From Rhynchopus sp. YZ270_cl-10 (Eukaryota): 64,000 nt of DNA. Shown in pieces: positions 25,767-54,663 of the stretch. A program made the translations under genes and the position numbers. Numbering within the stretch: position 1 is the first letter of the stretch; the number at the start of each line of letters is the position of its first letter. The notes under the pieces were generated by a model. That model was not told the origin of the DNA and did no database searches. It saw nothing but the letters and a program-made list of their open reading frames with translations. The DNA is taken from the NCBI GenBank assembly GCA_964035575.1, contig OZ037839.1:806001-870000 (forward strand), read 5' to 3'.

Positions 25767-27317
25767 TTACTTGTCATGTTCCTGCTTGTCCCCGCCCCCT
25801 AGTGCTTGCATCAAAGCTTCTCCTTCCTGTCCTGCTTTCAATGCAATACATTGTCTTGCATCTCCAGACACGTCTGCTTGTACTTCCTCAAAAGCTTCTA
25901 TCCGCACACCTCCGAACTGTTCCGTAAACCTTGCGTAAATCTCACGCACACGTACATAGAAGGTCTTCGTGAGTCCAGTGTCATGGTTCTTTTGGGCTTC
26001 ATTCGGGAGAGACATCTCGTGAATGTCGATGTTGCCTGGCAAGACGACTGTTGTGAGTGCGTTACAGTTGAGCAGGAAGTAACGCTGGATAATTGTGTCC
26101 CTGCCAAAACCTGACATGTCCAGCGTCGTCAAGGACGTGCAATCTTGCAAGAAAGATATATCAATCTGCGTAACATTGCTCATTCCTGAGAAGTCTGCTG
26201 TTGTCAACGCGGAGCACCCTTGCAACCAGCTTGGCTCAATCTCTGTGATGCTGTGCAACACTGATAAATCAACTGTTTTCAATGAAGAACAGTGACCAAG
26301 AAAGCAGTTCTTGATGTCTGTGGCACTCCCAAAAGCTGAAAGGTCGATACTTCCCAGCGAGGTGCAGATCGCAAGAAAGCTGTGCTCTACCTTTACAACT
26401 CTGTGCAGTGCTGATAAGTCAACCGTTTCCAACGAGGTGCAGCCCGCACAAAAGCAGTTCCCAATTTCCGTCACATTCGTCATCCCTGAGAAGCTGATGG
26501 TGGTCAACGACGAGCAGCCGGAGAGAAATCCGGAGCCGATCTTCGTGACACTGCCAAATGCCGACAAATCAATGATTGCCAACGAGGTGCAGTGCGACAG
26601 GAAGCTGTCCTCAATGTGCGTGATTCTGCGCCATCCTGAGATGTCAATCCTTTCCAACGACTGGCAGTTAAACAAGAAGTATGTACCAACCTCCGTCACA
26701 CTCGTCATATGGGATAAGTCAAGATTTGTGACGCCACTTTCACGGAGGAACGAGCTCCCTATCACCGTCACACCAGTGAACCCTGACACGTCAAGACTTG
26801 TCAACGATGGGCAGTCAAAGAGACAGAAACTCCCAATGTGCGTAACGTTGCACAATCCCGACAAGTCAACGGTTTCCAGCGACGCACACCCGGAGAGGAA
26901 GCCTTGCTCAATTCGTGTCACACCAGACACAGCAGAGAGATCAAGTGTCGCGAACGCTGTCTCCTGTAGGAAGCAGTTCGGAATAACAGTCGCAACCTCC
27001 GCCTGAAGAAGCAGAGAAGCCACCTCAGGATCCCTCACAGTCGCCAACCTCGCTTCGGAAATGTCTGTCTCACCCAAGGCACGAAGTGCTTCAACAGATT
27101 TGTACTTCGTCGACTTCGTCAATACGACTGTGTCTCCAGCACTCAGTTCTGTGATGTCCTCTCCTTCCTCCTTCCCTCCGAAGCCCATGCGGAAGCTGTC
27201 TTCGCACAACCCTGTTGCAGACGCCACCTTCTGCCGCATCGTCTCCGTTGTGTCGTTCTCACCCACCTCAATCACGAATTTGGTTTCATCATCGTATCCC
27301 TGCACACACAGTTCCAT
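25767..27317 (-). CDS. UBL + BspA-type LRR protein, paralogue 1 (FG tail lost or frameshifted)
   Basis: Shared N-terminus MELCVQGYDDETKFVIEVGENDTTETMRQKVASATG (beta-grasp-like); about 24-aa repeats IGxxFLxxCxSLxxxDLS. Confidence 0.88.
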   Translation of the reverse strand: MELCVQGYDDETKFVIEVGENDTTETMRQKVASATGLCEDSFRMGFGGKEEGEDITELSAGDTVVLTKSTKYKSVEALRALGETDISEARLATVRDPEVASLLLQAEVATVIPNCFLQETAFATLDLSAVSGVTRIEQGFLSGCASLETVDLSGLCNVTHIGSFCLFDCPSLTSLDVSGFTGVTVIGSSFLRESGVTNLDLSHMTSVTEVGTYFLFNCQSLERIDISGWRRITHIEDSFLSHCTSLAIIDLSAFGSVTKIGSGFLSGCSSLTTISFSGMTNVTEIGNCFCAGCTSLETVDLSALHRVVKVEHSFLAICTSLGSIDLSAFGSATDIKNCFLGHCSSLKTVDLSVLHSITEIEPSWLQGCSALTTADFSGMSNVTQIDISFLQDCTSLTTLDMSGFGRDTIIQRYFLLNCNALTTVVLPGNIDIHEMSLPNEAQKNHDTGLTKTFYVRVREIYARFTEQFGGVRIEAFEEVQADVSGDARQCIALKAGQEGEALMQALGGGDKQEHDK

Positions 27318-27635
27318 TGTTTCGAGTGACGTGTTGCTCTGTTTTGGGGTAAGTGTTGAGAAGGAGGAGGAGGGAGGCAAGATACAACAAAATAGCTTTC
27401 TTGTTTGTTTTTCACTTAACTGTGTGGTAGAAAAGACCCTGGTCTGACACGTTGTTCACAAAAAGCGGTGGGACACTCCGGGTTGTCAGAGTTGTGCACC
27501 AAACCTGCCAAATATTCCACCCCATCTCGAAAGGGAATCCAAATATGAAGTTGATATTTTCACCGAAGTGTTCTTCACACACAAATCACCAAACCCCCCA
27601 AACCCCTCTGTTCATCCAGCTTGTCCTGCTCCTGT

Positions 27636-29129
27636 TTATGCTGCCCCCAACTCTCCAAATCCTCTTTTTGTTCCTCTTTTTTGTCCTCTTTTTTTCACTC
27701 TCTTTTGTCCTGCTTTCAATGTAATACATTGTCTTGCACTTCCAGACACGTCTGTTCGTACTGCCTCAAAAGCTTCCATCCGCACATCTTCGAACTGTTC
27801 CGTAAACCTTGCGTAAATCTCACGCACACGTACAGAGAAGGCCTCCTTGTAGGTGCTCATTCTAGGGTCTCCATTCGGGAGAGACAACATCTCGTCAATG
27901 TCGATGTTGCCTGGCAAGACGACTGTTGTGAGTGCGCTGCAGTTGATCAGGAAGCGGCGATGGATCTCTGTGCTCCTACCTATACCTGACATGTCCAGCG
28001 TCGTCAAGGATGTGCAATCTTTCAGGAAACCACCATCAATCTGTCTAACATTGCTCAGTCCTGATAAGTCTGCTGTTGTCAACGCGGAGCACCCTTCCAT
28101 CCAGCCTGGCCCAATGTGTGTGATGCTGCGCAACACTGATAAATCAACTGTTTTCAATGATGAACACTGCAAAAGAAAGTTGGTCCCGATGCCACAACCC
28201 ACCTTCACAACTTTGTGCAGTGCTGTCGAGTCAATCGTTTCCAACGAGGTGCAGGCCCAACAAAAGCTGTTCCCAATTTCCGTCACATTCGTCATCCCTG
28301 AAAAGCTGATGGTGGTCAACGACTTGCAGTTGAAGAGAAACTCGGAGCCGATCTTCGTGACACTGCAAAAAGCTGACAAATCAATGCTTGCCAACGAGGT
28401 GCAGCTCGACAGGAAGTTGTTCTGAATGTGTGTGATTCTGCGCCATCCTGAGATGTCAATCCTCTTCAACGAATTGCAGGAGGCAAGAAAGTCTGCACCA
28501 ACCTTCGTCACACTCGTCATATGGGATAAGTCAAGATTTGTGACGCCACATCCTTGGAGGAACCTGTTCCCTATCACCGTCACACCAGTGAACCCTGACA
28601 CGTCAAGGCTTCTCAACGATGTGCAGTCATAGAGACAGTAGTCCCCGATGTGCGTAACGTTGCACAATCCCGACAAATCAACGGTTTCCACCGACGCACA
28701 CTTGTAGAGGAAGTAGTCCTCAATTCGTGTCACACCAGACACAGCAGAGAGATCAAGTCTCGTAAACGATGCTTGCGACAAGAACCAGTTCGGAATAACA
28801 GTCGCAACCTCCGCCTGAAGAAGCAGAGAAGCCACCTCAGGATCCTTCACAGTCCGCAACCTCGCTTCGGAAATGTCTGTCTCACCCAAGGCACGAAGTG
28901 CTTCAAGAGATTGGTATTTCGTCGACTTCGTCAATACGACTGTGTCTCCAGCACTCAGTTCTGTGATGTCCTCTCCTTCCTCCTTCCCTCCGAAGCCCAT
29001 GCGGAAGCTGTCTTCGCACAACCCTGTTGCAGACGCCACCTTCTGCCGCATCGTCTCCGTTGTGTCCTTCTCACCCACCTCAATCACGAATTTGGTTTCA
29101 TCATCATATCCCTGCACACACAGTTCCAT
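27636..29129 (-). CDS. UBL + BspA-type LRR protein, paralogue 2
   Basis: Same UBL head and LRR framework, about one repeat deleted; degenerate FG-tail remnant around the stop. Confidence 0.88.
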   Translation of the reverse strand: MELCVQGYDDETKFVIEVGEKDTTETMRQKVASATGLCEDSFRMGFGGKEEGEDITELSAGDTVVLTKSTKYQSLEALRALGETDISEARLRTVKDPEVASLLLQAEVATVIPNWFLSQASFTRLDLSAVSGVTRIEDYFLYKCASVETVDLSGLCNVTHIGDYCLYDCTSLRSLDVSGFTGVTVIGNRFLQGCGVTNLDLSHMTSVTKVGADFLASCNSLKRIDISGWRRITHIQNNFLSSCTSLASIDLSAFCSVTKIGSEFLFNCKSLTTISFSGMTNVTEIGNSFCWACTSLETIDSTALHKVVKVGCGIGTNFLLQCSSLKTVDLSVLRSITHIGPGWMEGCSALTTADLSGLSNVRQIDGGFLKDCTSLTTLDMSGIGRSTEIHRRFLINCSALTTVVLPGNIDIDEMLSLPNGDPRMSTYKEAFSVRVREIYARFTEQFEDVRMEAFEAVRTDVSGSARQCITLKAGQKRVKKRGQKRGTKRGFGELGAA

Positions 29130-29706: not shown

Positions 29707-31416
29707 CTACTCCTGCTTGTGTTGCTCCTGTTTGTCCCGTCCAAACCCTCCAAACCCTCCTGCTTGCAAATCTCCTGTTTGTCCCGTACCAAGCCTCCTC
29801 CTTTTCGTCCTCCCTGTTTGTCCTGCTCCAAGTCCTTCTGATAGTCCTTCTCCTGTTTGTCCTGCCCCAAACCCTCCAAATCCTCCTGCTTGTCCTCGTC
29901 CTGATGTGCTTACATCAGACCGTTCTCTCTCTTGTCCTGCTTTCAATGCAATACATTGTCTTGCACTCCCAGACACGTCTGTTCGTACTGCCTCAAAAGA
30001 TTCTATCCGCACATCTTCGAACTGTTCCGTAAACCTTGCGTAAATGTCACGTACATGTGCATGGAAGGTCTTCGTGCCGTCGCTCAAGCCCACGTTTGCA
30101 TGAATGTCGATATTGCCTGGTACGAAGAGTGTTGTGAGTGCGTTGCAGTTGAGCAGGAAGTCGCAGCTGATTGTTGTGTCACTGCCAAAACCTGATATAT
30201 CCAGCGTGGTCAAGGATGTGCAATCTTGCAGGAAATATGCATCAATCTGCGTAACATTGCTCATTCCTGAGAAGTCTGCTGTTGTCAACGCGGAGCACTC
30301 TTGCATCCAGCCGCCCTCAATATGTGTGATGCTGCGCAACACTGATAAATCAACTGTTTGCAATGATGAACACTCTTTTAGAAACGCTGACCCAACAAAC
30401 CCCCCTGACCCAATGGCTGTGACATTGCCAAAAGCTGAAAGGTCGATACTTCCCAGCGAGGTGCAGCTCTCAAGAAAGCCATACTCTACCTTCACAACCC
30501 TGTGCAGTGCTGATAAGTCAATCGTTTTCAACGAGGTGCAGTACGAACAAAATGCCATGTCAATTTCCGTGACATTGGTCATCCCAGAAAAGCTGACGGT
30601 GGGCAACGACTCGCAGCAGGTGAGAAAGTCGGAGCCGATCTTCGTGACATTGCCAAATGCTGACAAATCAATCGTTGCCAACGAAGTGCTGTGCGACAGG
30701 AAGTTGTTCTCAATGTGCGTGATTCTGTGCCATCCTGAGATGTCAATCTTTTCCAACGACTGGCAGTAGGCAAGAAAGTATGCACCAACCTCCGTCACAC
30801 TCGTCATATGGGATAAGTCAAGCTTTGTGATGCCAGTTCCTTTGAAGAACGAGTCCCCTATCACCGTCACAGCAGTGAACCCTGACACGTCAAGGCTTGT
30901 CAACGATGGGCAGTCAGAGAGAAAGAAACGCCCAATGTGCGTAACGTTGCACAATCCCGACAAATCAACGGTTTCCACCGACCTACAACTGTAGAGGAAG
31001 TGGTGCTCAATTCGTGTCACACCAGACACAGCAGAGAGATCAAGTCTCGTAAACGATGCTTGCGCCAAGAACCAGTGCGGAATAACAGTCGCAACCTCCG
31101 CCTGAAGAAGCAGAGAAGCCACCTCAGGATCCTTCACAGTCGCCAACCTCGCTTCGGAAATGTCTGTCTCACCCAAGGCACGAAGTGCTTCAACAGATTG
31201 GTACTTCGTCGACTTCGTCAACACGACTGTGTCTCCAGCACTCAGTTCTGTGATGTCCTCTCCTTCCTCCTTCCCTCCGAAGCCCATGCGGAAGCTGTCT
31301 TCGCACAACCCTGTTGCAGACGCCACCTTCTGCCGCATCGTCTCCGTTGTGTCGTTCTCACCCACCTCAATCACGTATTTGGTTTCATCATCATATCCCT
31401 GCACACACAGTTCCAT
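29707..31416 (-). CDS. UBL + BspA-type LRR protein, paralogue 3 (short degenerate FG tail)
   Basis: Same architecture; a few GGFGGFG units, then a frameshift before the family C-terminus GFGDLCEE. Confidence 0.88.
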   Translation of the reverse strand: MELCVQGYDDETKYVIEVGENDTTETMRQKVASATGLCEDSFRMGFGGKEEGEDITELSAGDTVVLTKSTKYQSVEALRALGETDISEARLATVKDPEVASLLLQAEVATVIPHWFLAQASFTRLDLSAVSGVTRIEHHFLYSCRSVETVDLSGLCNVTHIGRFFLSDCPSLTSLDVSGFTAVTVIGDSFFKGTGITKLDLSHMTSVTEVGAYFLAYCQSLEKIDISGWHRITHIENNFLSHSTSLATIDLSAFGNVTKIGSDFLTCCESLPTVSFSGMTNVTEIDMAFCSYCTSLKTIDLSALHRVVKVEYGFLESCTSLGSIDLSAFGNVTAIGSGGFVGSAFLKECSSLQTVDLSVLRSITHIEGGWMQECSALTTADFSGMSNVTQIDAYFLQDCTSLTTLDISGFGSDTTISCDFLLNCNALTTLFVPGNIDIHANVGLSDGTKTFHAHVRDIYARFTEQFEDVRIESFEAVRTDVSGSARQCIALKAGQERERSDVSTSGRGQAGGFGGFGAGQTGEGLSEGLGAGQTGRTKRRRLGTGQTGDLQAGGFGGFGRDKQEQHKQE

Positions 31417-32423: not shown

Positions 32424-35400
32424 TCACAGGTGTATCCAAAAATGCAGTTCAATAGGTTCACCGAAGTGTTCTTCACACAAATCACCAAACCCTCCAAATC
32501 CCCCTGCTTGTCCTGTTCCTGTTTGTCCACCCCCAAACCCTCCAAACCCTCCTTCTTGTGTTGCTCCTGCTTGTCCTACACCAAACCCTCCAAACCCTCC
32601 TGCTTGTGTTGCTCCTGCTTGTCCTGCACCAAACCCTCCAAATCCTCCCGTTTGTGTTGCTCCTGCTTGTCCTACACCAAACCCTCCAAACCCTCCTGCT
32701 TGTGTTGCTCCTGCTTGTCCTGCACCAAACCCTCCAAATCCTCCTGCTTGTGTTGCTCCTGCTTGTCCAGCCTCCTCCTCCTCCTCGTCCTCGTCGTCAG
32801 ATCCCTTGTTTGCCTGGTACTCGGCGAGCTTGACCTGGTACTCCTTCTTCAGATCAAGCGCCTTCTCGGTGTACTCAGTCTTGTCCTCGTCGTCCATCTC
32901 CCCCCAACGCCTGCCACATTCCTTGGCGATGTCACCAATCTTCCAGTCCGGGTTCTCCTCCTTCAGCTCGGCACGGATGTCGTTGACGAAGATGAAGTAG
33001 GCGCTGAGAGGACGCTTCGGTGCGTTGGGGTCCTCCTTGGCCTTGCGCTTCTTGGGACCTTCGTCCTCCTCCTCGTCCTCGTCGTCAGATCCCTTGTTTG
33101 CCTCACACTCAGCAAGCTTGACCTGGTACTCCGTCTTCAGCTCAGCACCAAACCCTCCAAACCCTCCTGCTTGTGTTGCTCCTGCTTGTCCACCCCCAAA
33201 CCCTCCAAATCCTCCTGCTTGTGTTGCTCCTGCTTGTCCTACACCAAACCCTCCGAATCCTCCCGTTTGTGTTGCTCCTGCTTGTCCTGCACCAAACCCT
33301 CCAAACCCTCCTGCTTGTGTTGCTCCTGTTTGTCCACCCCCAAACCCTCCAAATCCTCCCATTTGTGTTGCTCCTGTTTGTCCAGCCTCCTCCTCCTCCT
33401 CGTCCTCGTCGTCAGATCCCTTGTTTGCCTGGTACTCGGCGAGCTTGACCTGGTACTCCTTCTTCAGATCAAGCGCCTTCTCGGTGTACTCAGTCTTGTC
33501 CTCGTCGTCCATCTCCCCCCAACGCCTGCCACATTCCTTGGCGATGTCACCAATCTTCCAGTCCGGGTTCTCCTCCTTCAGCTCGGCACGGATGTCGTTG
33601 ACGAAGATGAAGTAGGCGCTGAGAGGACGCTTCGGTGCGCTGGGGTCCTCCTTGGCCTTGCGCTTCTTGGGACCTTCGTCCTCCTCCTCGCCCTCGTCGT
33701 CAGATCCCTTGTTTGCCTCACACTCAGCAAGCTTGACCTGGTACTCCGTCTTCAGCTCAGCACCAAACCCTCCAAACCCTCCTGCTTGTGTTGCTCCTGC
33801 TTGTCCTGCACCAAACCCTCCAAATCCTCCTGCTTGTGTTGCTCCTGTTTGTCCACCCCCAAACCCTCCAAATCCTCCTGCTTGTGTTGCTCCTGCTTGT
33901 CCTGCACCAAACCCTCCAAATCCTCCTGTTTGTGTTGCTCCTGTTTGTCCTGTACCAAAGCCTCCAAATCCTCCCATTTGTGTTGCTCCTGTTTGTCCTG
34001 CACCAAACCCTCCAAATCCTCCTGCTTGTGTTGTTCCTGTCTGTCCTACACCAAACGCTCCAAATCCTCCTGTTTGTCCTGCACCAAACCCACCAAACCC
34101 TCCAAATCCTCCTGCTTGTGTTGCTCCTGTTTGTCCTGCACCAAACCCTCCAAACCCTCCTGTTTGTGTTGCTCCTGTTTGTCCTGTACCAAAGCCTCCA
34201 AATCCTCCCATTTGTGTTGCTCCTGTTTGTCCTGCACCAAACCCTCCAAATCCTCCTGCTTGTGTTGTTCCTGTCTGTCCTACACCAAACGCTCCAAATC
34301 CTCCTGTTTGTCCTGCACCAAACCCACCAAACCCTCCAAATCCTCCTGCTTGTGTTGCTCCTGTTTGTCCTGCACCAAACCCTCCAAATCCTCCTGTTTG
34401 TGTTGCTCCTGTTTGTCCTGTACCAAAGCCTCCAAATCCTCCCATTTGTGTTGCTCCTGTTTGTCCTGCACCAAACCCTCCAAATCCTCCTGCTTGTGTT
34501 GTTCCTGTCTGTCCTACACCAAACGCTCCAAATCCTCCTGTTTGTCCTGCACCAAACCCACCAAACCCTCCAAATCCTCCTGCTTGTGTTGCTCCTGTTT
34601 GTCCTGCACCAAACCCTCCAAACCCTCCTGTTTGTGTTGCTCCTGTTTGTCCTGTACCAAACCCTCCAAACCCTCCTGTTTGTGTTGCTCCTGTTTGTCC
34701 TGTACCAAACCCTCCAAACCCTCCTGTTTGTGTTGCTCCTGTTTGTCCTGTACCAAACCCTCCAAATCCTCCTGCTTGTGTTGCTCCTGTTTGTCCTGCA
34801 CCAAACCCTCCAAATCCTCCTGTTTGTGTTGCTCCTGTTTGTCCTGCACCAAACCCTCCAAATCCTCCTGTTTGTGTTGCTCTTGCTTGTCCTGCACCAA
34901 ACCCTCCAAATGCCGCAGTGACGGGCAGGATCTCACGCACCTGCTTCGTTGCAATGTTTGTATGCTGTGCCGTCTTGCCTCTGATGAAAGAGAAGATGAG
35001 GTGCCCCCCAAAAGCGTCTATCCGCTGCACACCTCCGAACTGTTTCCTCGCGTAAATATCACACACACGTGCATGGAAGGTCTGTCGCTTCTCCTTGCTG
35101 ATGCTAAAGCCTACTTTATTCGCGGGACACTGCTGCCTGTTCTCGTTTCTCTTGTGCGCTTCTTTTGGGAGAGACATCTCGTGAATGTCGAAGTTGCCTG
35201 GCACGGAGAGTGATGTGAGTGCGTCGCAGTTGAGCAGGAATCCGTCGACCTCGACCGTTGTGTCACTGGCTATTCCTGACATGTCCAGCGTCGTCAAGGA
35301 TGTGCACTCTTTCAGGAAATTTACACCAATCTGCGTAACATTGCTCAGTCCTGATAAGTCTGCTGTTGTCAACGCAGAACACTTTTGCAACCAGCTGCCC

Positions 35401-36479
35401 TCAATATGTGTGATACTACGCAACACTGATAAATCAACTGTTTTCAATGATGAACACTCAAAAAGAAAGTGGTGTTCGATGTCTGTGGCACTCCCAAAAG
35501 CTGAAAGGTCGATACTTCCCAGCGAGGTGCAGATCGCAAGAAAGCCGTACTCTACCTTCACAACTCTGTGCAGTGCTGATAAGTCAACCGTTTTCAACGA
35601 GGTGCAGTACGAACAAAGCTGGTGCCCAATTTCCGTCACATTCGTCATCCCTGAAAAGCTGATGGTGGTCAACGACGTGCAGGAGTAGAGAAATCGGTGG
35701 CCGATCTTCGTGACACTGCAAAATGCCGACAAATCAATGCTTGCCAACGAGGTGCAGTTATGGAGGAAGCCGTCCTCAATGTGCGTGACTCTGCGCCATC
35801 CTGAGATGTCAATCCTCTCCAACGACTTGCAGTGGCGGAGAAAGTATGCACCAACCTTCGTCACACTCGTCATATGGGATAAGTCAAGATTTGTGACGCC
35901 ACATCCTTGGAGGAACCTGTTCCCTATCACCGTCACACCAGTGAACCCTGACACGTCAAGGCTTGTCAACGATGTGCAGTCAGAGAGACAGGCATTCCCA
36001 ATGTGCGTAACGTTGCACAATCCCGACAAGTCAACGGTTTCCACCGACTCACACCTGAAGAGGAAGCCTTCCTCAATTCGTGTCACACCAGACACAGCAG
36101 AGAGATCAAGTCTCGTAAACGATGCTCTGCACAAGAACTGCTTCGGAATAACAGTCGCAACCTCCGCCTGAAGAAGCAGAGAAGCCACCTCAGGATCCTT
36201 CACAGTCGCCAACCTCGCTTCGGAAATGTCTGTCTCACCCAAGGCACGAAGTGCCTCAACAGATTGGTACTTCGTCGACTTCGTCAACACGACTGTGTCT
36301 CCAGCACTCAGTTCTGTGATGTCCTCTCCTTCCTCCTTCCCTCCGAAGCCCATGCGGAAGCTGTCTTCGCACAACTCTGTTGCAGACGCCACCTTCTGCC
36401 GCATCGTCTCCGTTGTGTCGTTCTCACCCACCTCAATCACGTATTTGGTTTCATCATATCCCTGCACACACAGTTCCAT
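32424..36479 (-). CDS. UBL + LRR + long FG-repeat tail with two HMG boxes, paralogue 4 (about 1351 aa from MELCVQ)
   Basis: Continuous ORF: UBL, LRRs, (GGFGGFGAGQTGATQA)n, two copies of PKRPLSAYFIFVNDIRAELKEENPDWKIGDIAKECGRRWGEM (HMG box), end GDLCEEHFGEPIELHFWIHL. Confidence 0.88.
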   Translation of the reverse strand: MELCVQGYDETKYVIEVGENDTTETMRQKVASATELCEDSFRMGFGGKEEGEDITELSAGDTVVLTKSTKYQSVEALRALGETDISEARLATVKDPEVASLLLQAEVATVIPKQFLCRASFTRLDLSAVSGVTRIEEGFLFRCESVETVDLSGLCNVTHIGNACLSDCTSLTSLDVSGFTGVTVIGNRFLQGCGVTNLDLSHMTSVTKVGAYFLRHCKSLERIDISGWRRVTHIEDGFLHNCTSLASIDLSAFCSVTKIGHRFLYSCTSLTTISFSGMTNVTEIGHQLCSYCTSLKTVDLSALHRVVKVEYGFLAICTSLGSIDLSAFGSATDIEHHFLFECSSLKTVDLSVLRSITHIEGSWLQKCSALTTADLSGLSNVTQIGVNFLKECTSLTTLDMSGIASDTTVEVDGFLLNCDALTSLSVPGNFDIHEMSLPKEAHKRNENRQQCPANKVGFSISKEKRQTFHARVCDIYARKQFGGVQRIDAFGGHLIFSFIRGKTAQHTNIATKQVREILPVTAAFGGFGAGQARATQTGGFGGFGAGQTGATQTGGFGGFGAGQTGATQAGGFGGFGTGQTGATQTGGFGGFGTGQTGATQTGGFGGFGTGQTGATQTGGFGGFGAGQTGATQAGGFGGFGGFGAGQTGGFGAFGVGQTGTTQAGGFGGFGAGQTGATQMGGFGGFGTGQTGATQTGGFGGFGAGQTGATQAGGFGGFGGFGAGQTGGFGAFGVGQTGTTQAGGFGGFGAGQTGATQMGGFGGFGTGQTGATQTGGFGGFGAGQTGATQAGGFGGFGGFGAGQTGGFGAFGVGQTGTTQAGGFGGFGAGQTGATQMGGFGGFGTGQTGATQTGGFGGFGAGQAGATQAGGFGGFGGGQTGATQAGGFGGFGAGQAGATQAGGFGGFGAELKTEYQVKLAECEANKGSDDEGEEEDEGPKKRKAKEDPSAPKRPLSAYFIFVNDIRAELKEENPDWKIGDIAKECGRRWGEMDDEDKTEYTEKALDLKKEYQVKLAEYQANKGSDDEDEEEEEAGQTGATQMGGFGGFGGGQTGATQAGGFGGFGAGQAGATQTGGFGGFGVGQAGATQAGGFGGFGGGQAGATQAGGFGGFGAELKTEYQVKLAECEANKGSDDEDEEEDEGPKKRKAKEDPNAPKRPLSAYFIFVNDIRAELKEENPDWKIGDIAKECGRRWGEMDDEDKTEYTEKALDLKKEYQVKLAEYQANKGSDDEDEEEEEAGQAGATQAGGFGGFGAGQAGATQAGGFGGFGVGQAGATQTGGFGGFGAGQAGATQAGGFGGFGVGQAGATQEGGFGGFGGGQTGTGQAGGFGGFGDLCEEHFGEPIELHFWIHL
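32472..34911. repeat. Coding minisatellite: 48-bp FG unit, 234-bp higher-order repeat (x3), 615-bp FG+HMG duplication
   Basis: Unit accaaaccctccaaatcctcctgcttgtgttgctcctgtttgtcctgc; offsets of 234 bp (34046/34280/34514) and 615 bp (33000/33615) visible. Confidence 0.95.
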
Positions 36480-39769: not shown

Positions 39770-40769
39770 GTAACCCCACATAGGCCCATTACCATGGTTT
39801 CGTTAGCCCTTGTGACATGCCCTCCTGCAGTTTCCTGCTCATCGGCGGCCTCTAGTCCGTGTGGACTTGGGCCACTACCAGCTTCCGGAGGAGCGACGCT
39901 CACGTGCGACCGTCGGACCGGTCACTGCTCTGGGTGCCATGTGCTCTAGCCAATTCTTGACGAGGATGGGGGTGCAGACCGCCAAGTCCGGACGGTCGGA
40001 GGGAACCTTCCCCACCGCACGTCAGTTCTCCTTAGCTCTTTGTGACTTGACTCGTGCCGGTGCTGGTGTCTACAAGCTTCAACCTCTTCTTGTGACCCAC
40101 CGAGCACGCAGCCAACAGTGCGTCAAACCCTCAGGATCCACAAATCAATGGTTGCCAACGAAGTGCAATAATAGAGGAAGTTGTCCTCAATGTGCGTGAT
40201 TCTGCGCCATCCTGAGATGTCAAGACTTTTCAACGAGTTGCAGTAGGCAAGAAAGTGTGCACCAACCTTCGTCACACTCGTCATCTCGGATAAGTCAAGA
40301 TTTGTGACGCCACTTGCTTGTAGGAATAACTTCCCTAACACCGTCACACCAGTGAACCCTGACACGTCAAGGCTTGTCAACGATGTGCAGTCATAGAGAC
40401 AGTAGTCCCCGATGTGCGTAACGTTGCACAATCCCGACAAGTCAACGGTTTCCACCGACGTACACCTGTAGAGGAAGCCTTCCTCAATTCGCGTCACACC
40501 AGACACAGCAGAGAGATCAAGTCTCGTAAACGATGCTTCGCTCAAGAACCAGTTCGGAATAACAGTCGCAACCTCCGCCTGAAGAAGCAGAGAAGCCACC
40601 TCAGGATCCTTCACAGTCCGCAACCTCGCTTCGGAAATGTCTGTCTCACCCAAGGCACGAAGTGCTTCAACAGATTGGTACTTCGTCGACTTCGTCAACT
40701 GTAGGGGTCCGTTTTCGATGCATGCACCCCTATCCGAGATAGGTGATACAATACATCGTGGAGGTGATG

Positions 40770-43700: not shown

Positions 43701-45770
43701 CTTCAGCGGTTCCTCGCCTTCTCCTTTGGGGATGAGCACCACCATAGCCCTCGCAATTGCCCTGGGCCAGTTTCCTGTCTCCTCAATCACGTTCAGGCAG
43801 CACGCTAGCTCTTCCAGCATTAACGGAGGTAGTTCCTTCAGCTCCTCCACTCTCCATCCATCGAGGCCTGCCGCCTTCTTCCGCTTCATCTTGCCGATGG
43901 TCTTGCTGAGGTCCTCGCCGGTCAAAGGTCCGCAGTCACAGGGTGCCCCCTCGGGAATGTGCTCCTTGAACCTCTCGAAGAAGGTCGCCCATGCAGGTTC
44001 CTCGGATTCGCCGTACATCCGGAACACCCCTCCCCACGCCTGGTCACCCATAAGAAGCTCGTCCATCTCCTTGAGGTTGGCAGTCACAGTGCCGTCCTCT
44101 CGTTTCAGGAAAGTCGTGTGCGAAGACGTGGCTTTTCTTAACGTCTGGAAGACCTTCTCGGGGCTTGACGTCATGTGTTCCTTCATGGAGCGACGCCATT
44201 CTCGGATGCGTTTCTGTCGTCGGCGCTCGAGTAAGGCCAGCCCTTGCTTCTTTAGGCACCCAAGGAGACCACACAACGCTTCTACGTCGGGGTGTTCGAG
44301 ACCCCAAGTGTCGTTCTGCAGAAGATGTCGTTTCGCACGCGCTTTCGCCCACAGGTGTCTCTCATCCACCGATTCCGCAGAAGGTTGGCCGATGCGCTTC
44401 CTCCGTCCACCAATGAGTTGTTCCAGTTGTCGACACGTCTTCTGCAACTGAGCCGTCTCCAGGTTCACAGCATCAGGCATGTCGGGGTCCGTGCGAGCCG
44501 ACCGATGTCGCAATACATCAGGTTTCACCTCACCTCTCCCCCTGTGGCGGTGCTGTTTTGCCTCAATCTCACCCCTCCGCAGGAAGTAGTCCTCTGCAGT
44601 TTTGCAAAAGCGAGCCCAACGCTCCTCAACAGATAGCTTCTCGAGTTCGGCGTCGGTGAGTGCGTTCTCTTGCAGCACCTCTCTCGCAAGCACCTTCTCC
44701 TTGGCAGCCGGCCATTTGGACCAATCCTCGCCAATCAGGGGTAGGGGAGGACGTGCTTGGGGAGCCTTCTGCTCGTAACACTCGAGGTCCAGTGTCAGCA
44801 CCACCGGCCTGTGGGTGGAGATGCAGCTGTCAGTCCAGACCTCCACTTTGGAGATTGCAGGAGCAGCCACGTGGTTCGCCAATACCAGGTCGATGCGGCT
44901 GCCAGAAGATGTGGAGGTGTAGCACGTTTTCTCCACTTCCGTACCCGACTGCTGCGCGTACGAGTCTGCTGCATCAACCCATTTTCCGGAGGAGATTGCC
45001 GCTCGGATGACAGCGCTCTCCTGTGCCTCGACGTTGAAGTCTCCGGCAATGAACACCGGTATGTCCCCAAGGCTGGCAGCTTCCTCCAGGATGTCTGTCA
45101 GGAGTAGTTCCGTGCGGGCCTTGTCGTCACACACACCATAAAACGAGAAGACAGAGATGTTGCGTCCTCCGTTCCCATAAGCCACCTGCGCATGTGACAG
45201 ACGACATTCCTCCCATGCTTTCTGGGCACCCTGCGGCGGTACCGCTCTGGTTGGTATGTCTGCGCGCGACATGATCGCAACCCCACCGTTTTGTGTCCGT
45301 GTGCGCAGGTCGGATCCTCGGCTTCGTCTGCAGGGGGCACCAAAGAGGATCTGTTTGGCGCCAAACTCCTTAACGGCAAGCGCAGCACCCTTCATCTCAT
45401 CCGCTGTGAGGCGCACTTCCTGCAGCGCGCAGATGTCCAGATCCCATTCCCCCACCGCGAAGTGTGCCGACAAGGATGTCACATTCGCAGTGCCAAGCAT
45501 CATGGACGGACCCGGATTCTCCTCCACGTCTCCACATGTCAGCAGTGACCCCCTGCCCAAAAACGCCCCCCGTCGCCTCCCTCGACGCACTCTTTGTCGA
45601 GCCCCTCGACCCACCCCTCTACGTGTTCTACCCTTACCCCTAGTCCCCGACAGCATACAGCCCGCAGAGCGCAAACGATGCTGACCCCTTGTTGGGGAGA
45701 CAGTTTTCACAAAAACGTCTCGTTCTCCAACTACGCACGAAGAAGCCAATCCTGTGCCGTACCCTTCCAC
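40770..45770 (-). CDS. LINE pol ORF: 2A-like peptide, AP endonuclease, reverse transcriptase, CCHC finger, C-terminal Cys/His repeats
   Basis: GDVEENPGP; APE motifs (ANV, LQEV, AGDFN, SRIDLVL, STHRPV); RT motifs (AAGLDG, QRPIT, QHGFR, FDYQKCFDRV, GILQGCPLS, YADD, CLG); CPYC-x9-H-x4-C. Confidence 0.95.
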   Translation of the reverse strand: MEGYGTGLASSCVVGERDVFVKTVSPTRGQHRLRSAGCMLSGTRGKGRTRRGVGRGARQRVRRGRRRGAFLGRGSLLTCGDVEENPGPSMMLGTANVTSLSAHFAVGEWDLDICALQEVRLTADEMKGAALAVKEFGAKQILFGAPCRRSRGSDLRTRTQNGGVAIMSRADIPTRAVPPQGAQKAWEECRLSHAQVAYGNGGRNISVFSFYGVCDDKARTELLLTDILEEAASLGDIPVFIAGDFNVEAQESAVIRAAISSGKWVDAADSYAQQSGTEVEKTCYTSTSSGSRIDLVLANHVAAPAISKVEVWTDSCISTHRPVVLTLDLECYEQKAPQARPPLPLIGEDWSKWPAAKEKVLAREVLQENALTDAELEKLSVEERWARFCKTAEDYFLRRGEIEAKQHRHRGRGEVKPDVLRHRSARTDPDMPDAVNLETAQLQKTCRQLEQLIGGRRKRIGQPSAESVDERHLWAKARAKRHLLQNDTWGLEHPDVEALCGLLGCLKKQGLALLERRRQKRIREWRRSMKEHMTSSPEKVFQTLRKATSSHTTFLKREDGTVTANLKEMDELLMGDQAWGGVFRMYGESEEPAWATFFERFKEHIPEGAPCDCGPLTGEDLSKTIGKMKRKKAAGLDGWRVEELKELPPLMLEELACCLNVIEETGNWPRAIARAMVVLIPKGEGEEPLKQRPITITSVMYRLWAATRLRKVAAWQESWIHQRQHGFRNKHGTEDLLWYLCAKMEEALIDNTPIYLASFDYQKCFDRVPQEIMFRLVEQLGLPQNMMRPIRGMYKKLGRRFKLPAGLGQEWFATNGILQGCPLSVIFLNALVAVWMNGVERETGTQGLAYADDTNLLTKTLSQLRTGVTFTGHFADLTGQRIHVGKSTWQSNRPDEEETVQMNGSDLTRVEKSVCLGATVQARQAGAPTLPTKLEETIRECGPLSDKVGRLPLTQGEKAGIMQAAVMSKSVYGITVQDPNVCCETTLGNAMERGIHGANRVSRRSTRVMLNLFEKGHLLDPGVAFDYRRIMTWAKMTRKSEEICALLENCRVRAKRKQAKSGGPIGLVARALLRLNWKWESATTVTTHDGNLIDVKTIELGELGHLVRERMFFVRLSSTKTDVNAKGGGRANLRGIRAGVDKEKTLALTKSKVLSDYEAGTLRHIVADGTLTGVRLARAKLRETATCPYCAAGVDEDPKHMWWECVAWESIRTDYPLLLNIDRTNWPNCLSICGMCTPETPLATARVADLQMMMVRILIERYRQNRTQEMKPQLEQERYPWTWEPDADTTTQYPNVLGSCTLPVKKWPYGRALLLAIAYWLGGLRWSNEAGREVSHMELLIDFEVSTGMDIRPGDKTGKKPPKVKQPGNGAGGVVNGGGGGDGEMDDGGGEGGSDDGDGDDVMPEALPHNEMAKATTFGHMLSTLRTHAATPLHPGKPKIAMTLTSFGAHGLAGIDCRPVFAGGEETIRVLRALFDAGTAYRQQRKTEGMTEGEIRGNGRARGTWMGEYAAETAYPPADERGRRALRFFEQAEEENVPIRYRHDEHVKPGDAPVKAPAGAISIGPFAICVQHRKARCDACAKDQMADLRHCCYAHHSDGDGLAIRHEACTRHRLSRCGNCVRDKTTLDHCCRRHHDTAGGRQTTLGGLFSKKKQKDGHSRGGDGLM

Positions 45771-45782
45771 CGCACCACACCG

Positions 45783-46195
45783 TCACCGCACCACATCGCG
45801 CAGGGTGTTGCGGCCTACTATCCTGTTGTCCAGTCCCTGGACGGGACGAAACGCGATCTCGATGACGCCCCCCGCCACCTTCACGACAGTCACCGGGATG
45901 GCTGCGCCGTTGCCTCCCTCCTCGCAGTACTCCATGGAGTCGCCAGCCTCCAGCACTGCGTTCCCGTACGACTCCTCGTTCTTCTCGTTCCCCTCCGCCT
46001 GCTCTTTTGCGGGGACTTCCGTCCGTATCCTGCGCGGCGGACTCAGCAGCGCCACCGTCTCACCGGACTCACTGCGGTCTTCCCGCTTGCCCGCCAGGGT
46101 CACAGCAGGTGGCGCCACCGGCACTCTGGGAGCTGGCGAGGTCTCCGCGTCCTCCTCGACAGCCGCACATTCTGGCGAAGTCTGCACCGGCAGTG
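45783..46195 (-). CDS. 3' remnant of LINE upstream ORF (ORF1-like), in frame with pol
   Basis: Open from the element's 5' junction to TGA at 45785-45783; acidic/Pro-rich stretch, then a short beta-rich segment. Confidence 0.55.
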
Positions 46196-47250
46196 TTCGT
46201 CGACTTCGTCAACACGACTGTGTCTCCAGCACTCAGTTCTGTGATGTCCTCTCCTTCCTCCTTCCCCCCAAAGCCCACATGAAAGCTGTCTTCGCACAAC
46301 CCTGTTGCAGACGCCACCTTCTGCCGCATCGTCTCCGTTGTGTCGTTCTCACCCACCTCAATCACGTATTTGTTTTCATCATCATATCCCTGCACACACA
46401 GTTCCATTGTTTCGAGTGAAGTGTTGCTCTGTTGTGGGGTAAGTGTTGAGAAGGAGGAGGAGGGAGGCAAGATACAACAAAATAGCTTTCCTTTTTTGTT
46501 TTTGAGTATACGAGAATCGTCATATAAAAAATAAAACTCTGTTTTTAGATCTTGCGCCGAATTACTCCCCATACTCATTCACTCAGGACAGTAATTCGAG
46601 CGATCAACGAAAAAACCTATCCTCTTTTTTTCCACGATTTCGTTTGTTTTGACTGAATATCTATCTAAAAAAGGAAGAGTTTTGTTTTCCACTTCTCCAG
46701 GTACTCTCCCCATATGAACAAGAACTGACAGGTACATGACATGTCTGTATGGAAACAAAGTACTATTTTCGTTGAAACGCAGCCCTGCAGGTTGTCAAAA
46801 TGATCAGTGTGGCGCACACTGAGAATGAGGCAAACAGGAAATAGATGCGTTATCAAATAACCTGAACGTTGTATTTCTTATCTGTTCCTAATCACACCAT
46901 CGTCGTGGGAAAGAAGGGGGAATAGCTCTCGATACAGGCATTCCTCCGACTGACCCACTGTACGATGCCAGCCATCCAGATGAAGGCGCAATACAATAAG
47001 CAGCTATCGCGAACAATGAAAGAGTTTTTTCAGGCAAGGTATGTGGTAAGAGGAAGAATAAAACATTACGAACAAACCTCCACCCTCATTCGCAAGCTTC
47101 ACTTCCGCTTTGGTTTTCTCCTCACATGAAACAATTAAATTACTGGGGTAGAATAATTTCGTTCCTTTGTGAATGCAAAAATCCACACCAAAGATTTTAT
47201 CCTCCACGTATCATACGTGGGACAAGGGAAATAATACTTTACCCAAGAGC

Positions 47251-49386
47251 TCACAGGTGTATCCAAAAATGCAGTTCAATAGGTTCACCGAAGTGTTCTT
47301 CACACAAATCACCAAACCCTCCTGCTTGTGCTGTTCCTGCTTGTCCTGCCCCAAACCCTCCAAACCCTCCTGCTTGTCCTGCTCCTGTTTGTCCTGCTCC
47401 AAACCCTCCAAATCCTCCTGCTTGTGTTGCTCCTTCTTGTCCTGCACCAAACCCTCCAAATCCTCCTGCTTGTGTTGCTCCTTCTTGTCCTGCACCAAAC
47501 CCTCCAAACCCTCCTGCTTGTGTTGCTCCTTCTTGTCCTGCCCCAAACCCTCCAAATCCTCCTGCTTGTCCTGCTCCTGTTTGTCCTGCTCCAAACCCTC
47601 CAAATCCTCCTGCTTGTGTTGCTCCTTCTTGTCCTGCACCAAACCCTCCAAATCCTCCTGCTTGTCCTGCTCCTGTTTGTCCTGCACCACACCCTCCAAA
47701 TCCTCCTGCTTGTGTTGCTCCTGTTTGTCCTGCCCCAAACCCTCCAAACCCTCCTGCTTGTCCTGCTCCTGTTTGTCCTGCACCAAACCCTCCAAATCCT
47801 CCTGCTTGTGTTGCTCCTGCTTGTCCTGCCCCAAACCCTCCAAATCCTCCTGCTTGTCCTGCTCCTGTTTGTCCTGCCCCAAACCCTCCAAATCCTCCTG
47901 CTTGTGTTGCTCCTGCTTGTCCTGCCCCAAACCCTCCAAATCCTCCTGCTTGTGTTGCTGCTGTTTGTCCTGCTTTCAATGCAATACATTGTCTTGCATC
48001 TCCAGACGCGTCTTGTCCTGCTGCCTTAAAGCGTACTACCCGCACACCTCTGGACTGTTTAGCAAACATTGCGTACATTACACGCGCCCGCACATGAAAC
48101 GGTACCGACCTGCACCGCAGCATGCTACGCTCCTCATTTGATAACTTCTCGTCAATGTCGATGTTGCCTGGAAAGACGACTGTTATGAGTGCGTTGCAGT
48201 TGCGCGGGAATTGGCTTCCGACCTGCGCGTCGATCATCGTGTCCCTACCTATTCCTGACATGTCCAGCGTCGTCAAGGATGTGCACCCTTGCAGGAAATA
48301 TTCTTGAATCCGTTTAACATGGCTCATTACAGAGAAGTCTGCTGTTGTCAACGCGGAGCAGTTAACAAGAAAGTAGTGCCCGATGTCTGCGACACTGCCC
48401 AAAGCTGAAAGGTCGATACTTCCCAGCGAGGTGCAGCCCTTCAGAAAGCCTTGCCCTACCTTCATAACTTTGTGCAGTGCTGATAAGTCAATCGTTTCCA
48501 ACGAGATGCAGTCCCTACAAAAGCTGTCCCCAAGTTCCGTCACGTTGGTCATCCCTGAAAAGTTGATGGTGGTCAACGACTTGCAGTGGCCGAGAAAGTC
48601 GGAGCCGATCTTCGTGACACTGCAAAAAGCTGACAAATCAATGGTTGTCAACGAGAAGCAGCTCTGGAGGAAGTTGCCCTCAATGTGCGTGATTTTGCGC
48701 AATACTGAGATGTCAATCTTTTCCAACGATTTGCAGCTGAGAACAAAGCCTGCACCAACCTTCGTCACACTCGTCATCGCGGATAAGTCAAGATTTGTGA
48801 CGCCACTTCCTGCGAGGAACCTGTTCCCTATCACCGTCACACCAGTGAACCCTGACACGTCAAGGCTTGTCAACGATGGGCAGTAAGAGAGACAGGCATT
48901 CCCAATGTGCGTAACGTTGCACAATCCCGACAAGTCAACGGTTTCCACCGACGCACACCCGTAGAGGAAGTAGTCCTCAATTCGTGTCACCCCAGACACA
49001 GCAGAGAGATCAAGTCTCGTAAACGATGCTCTGCACAAGAACTGCTTCGGAATAACAGTCGCAACCTCCGCCTGAAGAAGCAGAGAAGCCACCTCAGGAT
49101 CCTTCACAGTCGCCAACCTCGCTTCGGAAATGTCTGTCTCACCCAAGGCACGAAGTGCTTCAACAGATTGGTACTTCGTCGACTTCGTCAACACGACTGT
49201 GTCTCCAGCACTCAGTTCTGTGATGTCCTCTCCTTCCTCCTTCCCTCCGAAGCCCATGCGGAAGCTGTCTTCGCACAACCCTGTTGCAGACGCCACCTTC
49301 TGCCGCATCGTCTCCGTTGTGTCGTTCTCACCCACCTCAATCACGTATTTGGTTTCATCATCATATCCCTGCACACACAGTTCCAT
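47251..49386 (-). CDS. UBL + LRR + FG-repeat tail, paralogue 6
   Basis: UBL head, LRRs, about 13-14 AGGFGGFGAGQxGAxQ units (about 47299-47970), same C-terminus as paralogue 4. Confidence 0.9.
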   Translation of the reverse strand: MELCVQGYDDETKYVIEVGENDTTETMRQKVASATGLCEDSFRMGFGGKEEGEDITELSAGDTVVLTKSTKYQSVEALRALGETDISEARLATVKDPEVASLLLQAEVATVIPKQFLCRASFTRLDLSAVSGVTRIEDYFLYGCASVETVDLSGLCNVTHIGNACLSYCPSLTSLDVSGFTGVTVIGNRFLAGSGVTNLDLSAMTSVTKVGAGFVLSCKSLEKIDISVLRKITHIEGNFLQSCFSLTTIDLSAFCSVTKIGSDFLGHCKSLTTINFSGMTNVTELGDSFCRDCISLETIDLSALHKVMKVGQGFLKGCTSLGSIDLSALGSVADIGHYFLVNCSALTTADFSVMSHVKRIQEYFLQGCTSLTTLDMSGIGRDTMIDAQVGSQFPRNCNALITVVFPGNIDIDEKLSNEERSMLRCRSVPFHVRARVMYAMFAKQSRGVRVVRFKAAGQDASGDARQCIALKAGQTAATQAGGFGGFGAGQAGATQAGGFGGFGAGQTGAGQAGGFGGFGAGQAGATQAGGFGGFGAGQTGAGQAGGFGGFGAGQTGATQAGGFGGCGAGQTGAGQAGGFGGFGAGQEGATQAGGFGGFGAGQTGAGQAGGFGGFGAGQEGATQAGGFGGFGAGQEGATQAGGFGGFGAGQEGATQAGGFGGFGAGQTGAGQAGGFGGFGAGQAGTAQAGGFGDLCEEHFGEPIELHFWIHL

Positions 49387-52778: not shown

Positions 52779-53580
52779 AATATCCCGGACCACATCGTTG
52801 ATTCTTCAATGCTATGCACTTCGCATTGTTCAAATGTACACCACAACCTACTCAACGTGCTACACCATTGATGAAAACAAAAAAAAAAAAAAAAAAAACA
52901 AACAAAAAAACAAAAAAATCGACCAAAAAGAAGAAGAAGAAAAAGGAACACAATGACGCAAAGATAAATCGTGGCCATTGATGCAGACATTCCTCTGATC
53001 GACCCCCTATACTCAGCCATCCGGATGAAAACACCATAGAGAAATTGAAAGCGCGAATGCTTGGATATCAGGCAGTCATCGGGCGTTGGTTATACCATGA
53101 GATATGGAGCACAGCACACCCAGAGCACTGTGAGTATTGTATACACAATACCGACAAAACAAAAACCATATTTGGCACGTTAAATGGACACAGGAGAAAG
53201 CCTAGGGTTCGATGCCAGTCATGACCAGTGTACTACACATTGGTCATCCCCGCAGTAAAATAAAAAAACAACCAAAAAAAATATTATTGAGATGAACCTA
53301 CCGGGAGTGAAAAATACGGAAGTAACAAAGTGGAATGGCATGAAGAATGCCGGCGGAATGTGAAGTGGTGTGAAGTGAAGGAAAGAGAGTTGAAGTGAAG
53401 GACACGCAGAGAGCACAAGAGGAACTGTGCCCTTGATCCGACCCCAAAGAAGTGTCCAATGAAGGTGGGTGGTACAGTGGGGATGATTTCTTGCTCACTC
53501 AACAAAACACTACTCGACCCGCCCAAACACACAGAATAATCCTAACACCCCAATTCCCACTCCCGCTTTCTTTACTGCCC

Positions 53581-54663
53581 CTAAAAACCAACGTCACCTA
53601 GTCTGCTGCGTACAACGTTGCTACACTTGTCCAGTCCGTCGACTTTCGACAACGTTCTGCAGTTGGAAAGAAACCTGTAACCAATCGTGGTGACTGCTTG
53701 CAGGCCGGTGAAGTCCACTTCCGACAACGATGTGCAGTTGGAGAGAAAATAATCACCAATCGTGGTGACTGCTTGCAGGCCGGTGAAGTCCACTTTCGAC
53801 AACGATGTGCAGTAGGAGAGAAAACTGTAACCAATCGTGGTGACTGCTTGCAGGCCGGTGAAGTCCACTTCCGACAACGATGTGCAGTTGTAGAGAAACC
53901 CGCCACCAATCGTGGTGACTGATTGCATGCCGGTGAAGTCCACTTTCGACAACGTTGTGCAGTTGGAGAGAAACCTATCACCAATCGTGGTGACTGCTTG
54001 CAGGCCGGTGAAGTCCACTTCCGACAACGATGTGCAGTCGGAGAGAAAATCGTCACCAATCGTGGTGACTGATTGCATGCCGGTGAAGTCCACTTTCGAC
54101 AACGTTTCGCAGTTGGAGAGAAACCTATCACCAATCGTGGTGACTGCTTGCAGGCCGGTGAAGTCCACTTCCGACAACATTTTGCAGTTGCAGAGAAACC
54201 CGTAACCAATCGTGGTGACGCAGGGTAATGCAGGCAGGTGCAGTGTGATGCCACAGTTGTCATCCACATTGGGTACGCAACTGAAACCAATGCGCGTTAC
54301 GTCACTACCTGAGAAGAACTCTTCTGGAATCTCAGTCGCAACTTCTGCCTGAAGAAGCAAGCTGGCCACCTTCGGATCCTCCACCTGCTGCAACCTTTCT
54401 GCTGTGATGTTTGTTTCACCCAATGCATGAAGAGCTGATATGGCTTCGTATTTCGTCGTTTTCGTCAACACGACTGTGTCTCCAGCACTCAGTTCTGTGA
54501 TGTCCTCTCCTTCCTCCTTCCCTCCGAAGCCCATGCGGAAGCTGTCTTCGCACAACCCTGTTGCAGACGCCACCTTCTGCCGCATCGTCTCCGTTGTGTC
54601 GTTCTCACCCACCTCAATCACGTATTTGGTTTCATCATCATATCCCTGCACACACAGTTCCAT
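53581..54663 (-). CDS. UBL + LRR protein, paralogue 7, with a distinct homogenised 72-bp LRR array and no FG tail
   Basis: Same UBL head, then about 8 near-identical repeats VDFTGLQAVTTIGxxFLSNCTxLSx. Confidence 0.9.
   Translation of the reverse strand: MELCVQGYDDETKYVIEVGENDTTETMRQKVASATGLCEDSFRMGFGGKEEGEDITELSAGDTVVLTKTTKYEAISALHALGETNITAERLQQVEDPKVASLLLQAEVATEIPEEFFSGSDVTRIGFSCVPNVDDNCGITLHLPALPCVTTIGYGFLCNCKMLSEVDFTGLQAVTTIGDRFLSNCETLSKVDFTGMQSVTTIGDDFLSDCTSLSEVDFTGLQAVTTIGDRFLSNCTTLSKVDFTGMQSVTTIGGGFLYNCTSLSEVDFTGLQAVTTIGYSFLSYCTSLSKVDFTGLQAVTTIGDYFLSNCTSLSEVDFTGLQAVTTIGYRFLSNCRTLSKVDGLDKCSNVVRSRLGDVGF

Follow-up and report, generated by a model that had tools for sequence, protein, structure and literature searches.

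Plant NLRs (nucleotide-binding leucine-rich repeat receptors) and lamprey VLRs (variable lymphocyte receptors) are clustered leucine-rich repeat (LRR) paralogues, which are shaped by positive selection at fixed repeat positions, by sequence exchange and by changes in repeat number, all of which are encountered at the locus described here. In TRIM restriction factors and F-box/LRR adaptors, a variable C-terminal recognition module is carried on a constant module of the ubiquitin system, and in Rad23/Dsk2, midnolin and TBCE (the latter combining a ubiquitin-like domain, or UBL, with LRRs) a ubiquitin-fold domain is an integral and non-conjugatable part of the protein, as is the case here. Among protists, the account of the BspA-like gene families of Trichomonas vaginalis and Entamoeba gives 911 entries with clusters of up to 17-18 genes, and it includes PF13306 repeats, hundreds of paralogues, tandem clusters and pseudogenes, just as in the present family (PMC2843621). 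The FNIP/FGxxFN proteins of Cafeteria roenbergensis virus and Dictyostelium are similarly described as a large intracellular LRR repertoire, in which the most variable residues lie beside a conserved Phe motif and off the canonical strand (PMC9525666). Here, such an array is reported from a stretch of 64,000 nt of Rhynchopus sp. YZ270_cl-10 (assembly GCA_964035575.1, contig OZ037839.1, positions 806,001 to 870,000, forward strand), hereafter the window, where positions 25767-54663 hold seven UBL-LRR paralogues, all on the minus strand, six of them intact and one split by a long interspersed nuclear element (LINE). Their common architecture is a ubiquitin-fold head followed by a three-helix linker and by repeats of the BspA/TpLRR type. 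The feature is real, and we consider it fairly probable that the family consists of intracellular variable-recognition receptors caught in an arms race.

The evidence that carries this reading is positional. Variation concentrates at -2, -1, +2 and +3 relative to the conserved Phe of the FL..C motif, the flank positions, which were defined a priori as a class of 32 codons in repeats 1-8, including 24 codons in repeats 3-8 that had not been quoted in the initial annotation of the locus. Codon tests were run on codons 1-300 of six copies from the window with our own implementation of the GY94 model. Between pairs of copies, the non-synonymous difference amounts to 0.47 at the 32 flank codons, compared with 0.05 over 148 framework codons and 0.008 in the head. 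Eleven paralogues located outside the window vary at the same positions at the protein level (Spearman 0.80), with about 2 bits at the flanks and at most 0.8 elsewhere, except for position +5 at 1.1. Twice the log-likelihood difference is 158.8 for M1a vs. M2a, with omega (dN/dS) of 13.7 on 14% of the 300 codons, and 158.7 for M8a vs. M8; of the 28 sites with a posterior above 0.9, 22 are at flank positions. As a class, the latter give an omega of 6.15 (p 1e-4), rising to 7.24 in the held-out repeats 3-8 (p 6e-5) and to 7.5 when the synonymous rate is shared with neighbouring core codons (likelihood-ratio test, LRT, 61.5), against 0.56 for the framework (p 0.02). The signal persists when double and triple mutations are allowed (LRT 15.0), repeats 11-12 have the same outcome in four copies (LRT 8.9), and none of 120 null simulations, run with a random tree per repeat and a simulated multi-nucleotide share of 0 or 3.5%, reached the observed value. 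Position-specific diversifying selection, for which the initial annotation had named a dN/dS of 1 or less as the contrary outcome, is therefore upheld by a flank omega of 6.15-7.5, and selection at the flank positions is well supported. The analogy drawn at the same time with VLRs and NLRs stands as regards selection at fixed repeat positions and fails as regards the canonical strand, whose positions are not positively selected (omega 0.61).

The array is composed as follows, the genes being numbered g1 to g7 along the window:

25767..27317, minus strand: g1, 516 aa, intact, with UBL at aa 1-70, helical linker at 70-105, 13 TpLRR repeats and an alpha/beta C-cap
27636..29129, minus strand: g2, 497 aa, in-frame loss of one repeat, basic C-terminal tail
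29707..31416, minus strand: g3, 569 aa, with a short and degenerate tail rich in phenylalanine-glycine (FG)
32424..36479, minus strand: g4, open frame of 1351 aa, UBL-LRR with altered C-cap and a long tail of 48-bp FG repeats at ~34913-32480
33384..33760, minus strand: HMG-box insert 1, within the g4 FG tail, in frame
32769..33145, minus strand: HMG-box insert 2, identical to insert 1 except for 2 of 377 nt
46196..46407, minus strand: g5 head (UBL), its last codon cut by the LINE
40700..46195, minus strand: 5'-truncated LINE splitting g5
40682..40699, minus strand: target-site duplication of 18 bp, second copy at 46196-46213
40123..40698, minus strand: body of g5, a pseudogene, in which the linker and LRR repeats 1-6 give way to unrelated sequence
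47251..49386, minus strand: g6, 711 aa, shortened by deletion of one repeat, its FG-repeat tail sharing the last ~22 residues with g4
53581..54663, minus strand: g7, 360 aa, different LRR subfamily

The initial count of seven UBL heads and of an LRR framework common to six copies over 25767-54663 is confirmed, g7 belonging to the other LRR subtype, and three unrelated genes break up the array. The repeat sequences quoted at the outset are all present, namely NCFLQE (g1), NWFLSQ (g2), HWFLAQ (g3), KQFLCR (g4 and g6) and NWFLSE (g5) for repeat 1, as well as QGFLSG, DYFLYK, HHFLYS, EGFLFR, EGFLYR and DYFLYG for repeat 2. Every Pfam-supported long open reading frame (ORF) of the window sits on the minus strand and the same pyrimidine-rich tract followed by AG is found closely upstream of the ATG of each family copy; unidirectional gene clusters with trans-splicing are described in Diplonema papillatum (PMC10161547). 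The host is probably a diplonemid. Also in the array, a gene at 37059-38135 (minus strand) has a head that looks UBL-like by eye, with no Pfam match and 1.1 bits against the head profile of the family.

Regarding the rod, the AlphaFold model of g1 (pLDDT, the predicted local distance difference test, 90) comprises the beta-grasp head, three helices at 70-105, 13 repeats, each 24-25 residues long and containing two short strands, and the alpha/beta cap. LRR_5 (PF13306) scores 95-109 bits in all six intact copies, against a curated cut-off of 27.7. The best structural match of the rod is 4fs7 (Z 29.7, rmsd 3.7), followed by 4fd0, 4fdw, 4gt6, 4h09 and PcpA (4cp6), all of which we take to be of the TpLRR class, and TpLRR 6mlx aligns with Z 19.6 and rmsd 2.9; the BspA/TpLRR assignment proposed initially is thereby retained. 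A viral fold search returned generic LRR matches only, and no Pfam match was obtained to NB-ARC, NACHT or TIR in the window copies, nor to NB-ARC or NACHT in the 19 relatives scanned. Repeat number ranges from ~8 to 15 in the subfamily. Counted over 607 repeats of the family, Tyr makes up 9.2% of the residues at the flank positions, Asp 11.8%, Asn 10.7%, His 5.8% and Gly 11.8%, and the canonical strand positions are 77% Ser/Thr with no Tyr. Since the residues at -2, -1, +2 and +3 (and +5) are of polar or aromatic type and recur in register between the F, L and C that point inward, they are predicted to form one exposed stripe along the solenoid. The curvature of TpLRR is reportedly flipped, as Takkouche et al. 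are said to have described in 2023, which would place the stripe on the concave side.

The paralogues swap short tracts. Among 35 informative sites, close ones are more compatible than far ones (p 0.003-0.007 at 15-40 nt, the test being not significant at 100 nt), and the nearest partner paralogue shifts repeat by repeat. The head of g7 shares 97.6-99% nucleotide identity with its neighbours against just 71-73% for its linker, so the near-invariance of the heads in the window is largely homogenisation. The almost invariant head announced initially is thus found as near-identical sequences, which reflect homogenisation rather than shown constraint; across the whole family, head identity is ~50-95% with core residues fixed.

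Modelled alone (pLDDT 69), the head adopts a beta-grasp fold with ubiquitin as its best match (Z 10.3, rmsd 1.8 over 66 residues), and Dsk2, ISG15, TBCE, SUMO, UBX and PB1 domains come close behind. Foldseek rows are almost all ubiquitin, Pfam ubiquitin matches all seven heads weakly (E 2e-4 to 5e-3, below cut-off), and the Atlas (ESM) leads for the N-terminus, all below 0.9, are ubiquitin+DUF285 clusters. The beta-grasp nature of the head, on which the initial proposal depended, is therefore borne out. A weaker relative occurs in Rhynchopus euleeides (P0226, 57% over 61 residues), without LRR. As a sub-case of the receptor reading, the LRR rod could bind a target which the UBL delivers to the proteasome or p97, in the manner of a Rad23/Dsk2- or midnolin-like shuttle. 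Ubiquitin being the best structural match, the Z of 8.0-9.5 with the UBLs of Dsk2, Rad23, Nub1 and midnolin, and the mostly Phe/Tyr occupancy of the position of Leu8 all accord with such a shuttle. The Ile44-centred patch is important for UBL proteasome shuttles (Rad23/Dsk2), and the FPR-type loop motif, which was not seen by eye in the head sequence, marks UBX-type p97 adaptors. In the family heads, aligned to ubiquitin from P0165, the Ile44 column instead holds Gly (91), Ser (90) or Thr (20) and, by strand register, Val70 becomes Thr; the head is strongly acidic (16 D/E vs. 6 K/R); the C-terminal di-glycine is absent, LTKSTK running straight into the linker; and neither UBA nor UBX domains were matched by Pfam in the window copies. 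With Ile44 replaced by Gly, Ser or Thr, canonical proteasome coupling is doubtful and, since SUMO, UBX (Z 8.0-8.6, as other UBLs), PB1 and TBCE domains trail by no more than about 2 Z units, the fold names no partner. The coupling to proteasome or p97 suggested in the initial annotation is accordingly weakened, and both direct delivery by the head and the shuttle built on it are rather doubtful. In the receptor reading, the head would instead recruit a constant host factor, plausibly of the ubiquitin system, by a route other than the canonical Ile44 patch.

Several observations weigh against the receptor reading. The codon tests draw on only six DNA copies, and in the multi-nucleotide model the fitted double-mutation rate is high, with omega at its bound. 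The synonymous difference (pS), too, is higher close to the variable codons than distally (0.18 vs. 0.07, p 0.01) and, in the seven internal repeats of g7, whose framework has zero synonymous change, flank pS (0.33) equals the non-synonymous difference, pN (0.35). As to the head, the Ile44 column is occupied as said above, the omega of head plus linker (0.6) is not distinguishable from 1 (p 0.38), and constraint is shown only via the long-term conservation of core residues. We read the raised local pS as conversion homogenising everything but the selected windows; together with the equality of pS and pN in g7, it also means that en-bloc replacement or local hypermutation may contribute to the variation. 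Taken to its limit, this becomes a neutral account, in which birth-and-death, combined with hypermutation acting locally or with the conversion of short tracts from diverged donors, generates the pattern with no adaptive recognition at all. Besides the two pS observations, it could draw on the frequent multi-nucleotide codon differences (178 of 440 codon pairs differ at 2-3 positions) and on the pseudogenes and frame-labile tails. It is nonetheless very unlikely, as omega above 1 holds under a local synonymous rate, multi-nucleotide mutation and simulated recombination, and as the F, L and C codons standing amid the variable ones are conserved (pN 0.06).

A diversity-generating retroelement, recognised by adenine-specific variation relative to a template repeat, was also considered and set aside: all codon positions vary (0.53, 0.50 and 0.23) and no template-like copy was seen in a self-comparison of the window.

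The family extends far beyond the window. Scoring 7993 candidates yielded 800 proteins at E <= 1e-5, and the head is present in all of the 120 best homologues among these 800 matches, which come from ~40 long contigs, that of the window among them (P0027 being g7); relatives were searched for in viral, prokaryote and JGI metagenome contigs and none were found. In total, 207 head-bearing proteins were fetched from long ENA contigs, 154 of which are intact. By our own patterns, applied with no chance control, 30 of these 154 end in a CaaX-like motif and 42 in a bipartite motif resembling a nuclear localisation signal (NLS). Such tail tags are clade-bound (20 changes on a tree of 125 tips, against a mean of 53 after shuffling), which shows only inheritance, kin sharing labels. 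At least five members (P0019, P0082, P0192, P0201 and P0222) bear a B-box before the UBL, with no Pfam match to RING in any of these five, and a few have hydrophobic C-terminal segments. CaaX and the common NLS tail are both missing from the window copies, as is the TRIM set of RING, B-box and coiled coil. The FG, CaaX-like, NLS-like and transmembrane (TM) tails, judged by their motifs, may post subfamilies to membranes, the nucleus or its pore. The localisation initially given as cytosolic is consequently right as to the lack of a secretion signal and too narrow in view of the CaaX-like and NLS-like members.

An offensive or surface role, the proteins being adhesins or effectors directed at prey or hosts, has been proposed for the BspA proteins of Trichomonas and Entamoeba and would suit the shared repeat class, the hydrophobic C-terminal segments, as well as the CaaX tails that some Entamoeba members also have, CaaX-bearing Entamoeba BspA being reported at the cell surface (PMC2843621). 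For the present family it is quite unlikely. By hydropathy, neither a signal peptide nor a membrane anchor that would display the protein at the surface is evident in the six intact window copies (19-residue Kyte-Doolittle maximum 1.25-1.55), in agreement with the initial annotation; the N-terminal UBL and the NLS-like tails point inward; and the TM tails of other members follow the LRR with no signal peptide.

FG-rich tails are found in g3, g4 and g6, and g4 includes two HMG boxes. Unit variants of the tail are synonymous in the FG frame in 7 of 19 cases vs. 0.28 expected, and other paralogues read the tail in another frame; the FG tails of the window are putative coding sequence. P0201, a distant member, ends in GGFGGF repeats. 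The near-identical pair of 377-nt HMG-box inserts (32769-33760, minus strand) lies in frame inside the g4 FG minisatellite and is possibly a captured fragment or an integrated decoy.

The element that splits g5 (5.5 kb, flanked by the 18-bp duplication) begins with the last 136 codons of ORF1 (46193-45786), followed by a TGA and, in the same frame, by ORF2 (45782-40770), which encodes a 2A-like GDVEENPGP (~45557-45507), an apurinic/apyrimidinic endonuclease (APE), a reverse transcriptase (RT) and a Cys/His-rich C-terminus; read-through of the TGA is a guess. An ORF with APE and RT together with a target-site duplication characterises it as an APE-type retrotransposon lacking long terminal repeats. 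Searching for longer proteins retrieved three different heads fused to one ORF bearing an OTU domain, and the last 136 residues of this ORF match the 5' end of the element at 96%; the window LINE is thus a 5'-truncated member. In full-length copies, ORF1 is ~1200 aa long and has OTU motifs that look intact. A survey seeded with the head and covering predicted proteins, which does not address whether the LINE is exclusive to the family, found LINE sequence in 11 of 210 head-bearing proteins: five in-frame UBL-OTU ORF1 fusions made by full-length copies (P0121-P0123, P0270 and P0271), four near-identical copies truncated at different 5' ends, one of them g5, and two diverged ones. The junction is at aa 70-73 in ten of the 11, the eleventh is foreign from about there, and none is elsewhere. 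Several different 5' truncation points make the insertions independent, so that independent insertions at one site, the mark of target-specific LINEs, are observed within the family. The LINE protein cluster also has six ORF2-only members. The g5 body stops sharply past repeat 6 at ~39700-40140 (minus strand), with unrelated sequence beyond, probably owing to a second insertion.

Two further recurrent foreign sequences join the family (P0124, P0168, P0174 and P0211; P0171, P0172 and P0242), the junction being in the linker at aa ~94-96 in five of the seven proteins, which suggests further elements with a site preference. A degenerate fragment at 20576-21919 (minus strand) shares 25% identity with the C-terminal portion of ORF2 of the LINE.

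The 2A-like motif just upstream of APE recalls L1Tc and ingi, such motifs being reported in these and other LINEs, mostly without ORF1; the ingi clade has no ORF1 in that account (PMC3708506), whereas the LINE type of the window has an ORF1 with an OTU domain, and ORF2 follows it in the same frame after a single TGA. The target-site duplication is shared with target-specific LINEs, and insertion inside a protein-coding gene family sets it apart from known ones. OTU domains are reported in Ginger and Helitron transposons (PMC2836005). These features invite an intragenomic reading, in which the family restricts mobile elements and the OTU LINE counters a ubiquitin-linked restriction while disabling the genes by targeted insertion. 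The independent events joined at aa 70-73, the intact-looking OTU motifs, the other two recurrent junction sequences and the NLS-like tails speak for it. Conversely, conserved multicopy sequences are described as safe targets that site-specific LINEs ordinarily use (PMC4640811), the OTU domains of the other transposons come without such a link (PMC2836005), and the LINE tally covers family proteins only. On these grounds such a conflict appears unlikely.

Returning to receptors in an arms race, selection and composition suggest that the stripe would bind fast-evolving foreign proteins, whose source may be an antagonist, be it a virus, an endobacterium or a selfish element, because antagonists are the usual driver of such selection; a virus or endobacterium as immune target, as put forward initially, is inferred on this basis. 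Endobacteria equipped with secretion systems and LRR proteins are reported from diplonemids (10.1101/719211) and are a plausible selective agent. At its most ambitious, the reading would be that a marine flagellate lineage has evolved an intracellular, germline-encoded immune repertoire, in which UBL-TpLRR receptors numbering in the hundreds each bear a paratope-like stripe and are sent by interchangeable tails to nucleus, membranes or nuclear pore (the FG and HMG parts of g4 being possible decoys), and which is countered by a deubiquitinase-armed retrotransposon that inserts between head and rod, a scenario to which we give little credence. Diplonemids rank among the most abundant eukaryotes of the sea (PMC10161547). 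For the recognition of viruses and endobacteria by free-living protists, the family is a concrete candidate repertoire with candidate binding positions mapped. Besides, a constant scaffold with four free positions per repeat makes a natural binder library, and an OTU-bearing LINE aimed at a protein-coding gene family is a separate oddity.

Elsewhere in the window, all on the minus strand, 602-12448 encodes a HECT E3 ligase in a single ORF of 3948 aa with SPRY and LamG domains, 13 kb off the array. At 16187-19573, B-box, coiled-coil-like and SPRY ORFs resemble, by eye, the exons of a single TRIM-like gene separated by GT-AG introns; searching for homologues with the SPRY neighbour as query gave one relative (76%). 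A multi-pass membrane protein at 22380-24134 is adenylate/guanylate cyclase-like by Atlas features (0.93-0.94), with no Pfam match, and the products encoded at 50093-52440 and 60027-61670 are a TPR-like repeat protein with GCC as its last residues, a NUDIX hydrolase and a cytochrome P450. An inverted repeat of 446 bp (56800-57245 and 57650-58095, 98.9% identity, 400 bp spacing) is possibly a miniature inverted-repeat transposable element or a DNA transposon.

Literature searches, with most subscription journals outside their coverage, turned up neither an account of a UBL-BspA family nor one of an OTU-bearing LINE that targets such a family; in the Diplonema papillatum genome paper, LRRs go unmentioned in the main text, as do BspA and PF13306 in seven supplements (PMC10161547). 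Compared with the BspA repertoires of Trichomonas and Entamoeba, the present family stands apart by the UBL at its N-terminus, by NLS-like tails and fusions to B-box domains, and by the site-specific selection measured here. The main text of the Trichomonas paper nowhere contains the word ubiquitin, proposes extracellular roles and leaves dN/dS untested (PMC2843621); the dN/dS evidence which that paper wanted for a BspA-type expansion is supplied here in another lineage. FNIP proteins are of another repeat class and no UBL head is mentioned in their account (PMC9525666). Unlike NLRs, the family is devoid of NB-ARC, NACHT and TIR as judged by Pfam, and its canonical strand is conserved; unlike VLRs, which are assembled somatically from cassettes, the window genes are complete germline ORFs. 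The B-box placed before the UBL in some members recalls TRIM proteins, whereas RING and F-box were not found by Pfam and the window copies have no B-box. With respect to UBL shuttles and TBCE, there is here neither Ile44 patch nor UBA, and a large variable family takes the place of single conserved genes. The family works like plant NLR or FNIP repertoires, yet is a member of neither.

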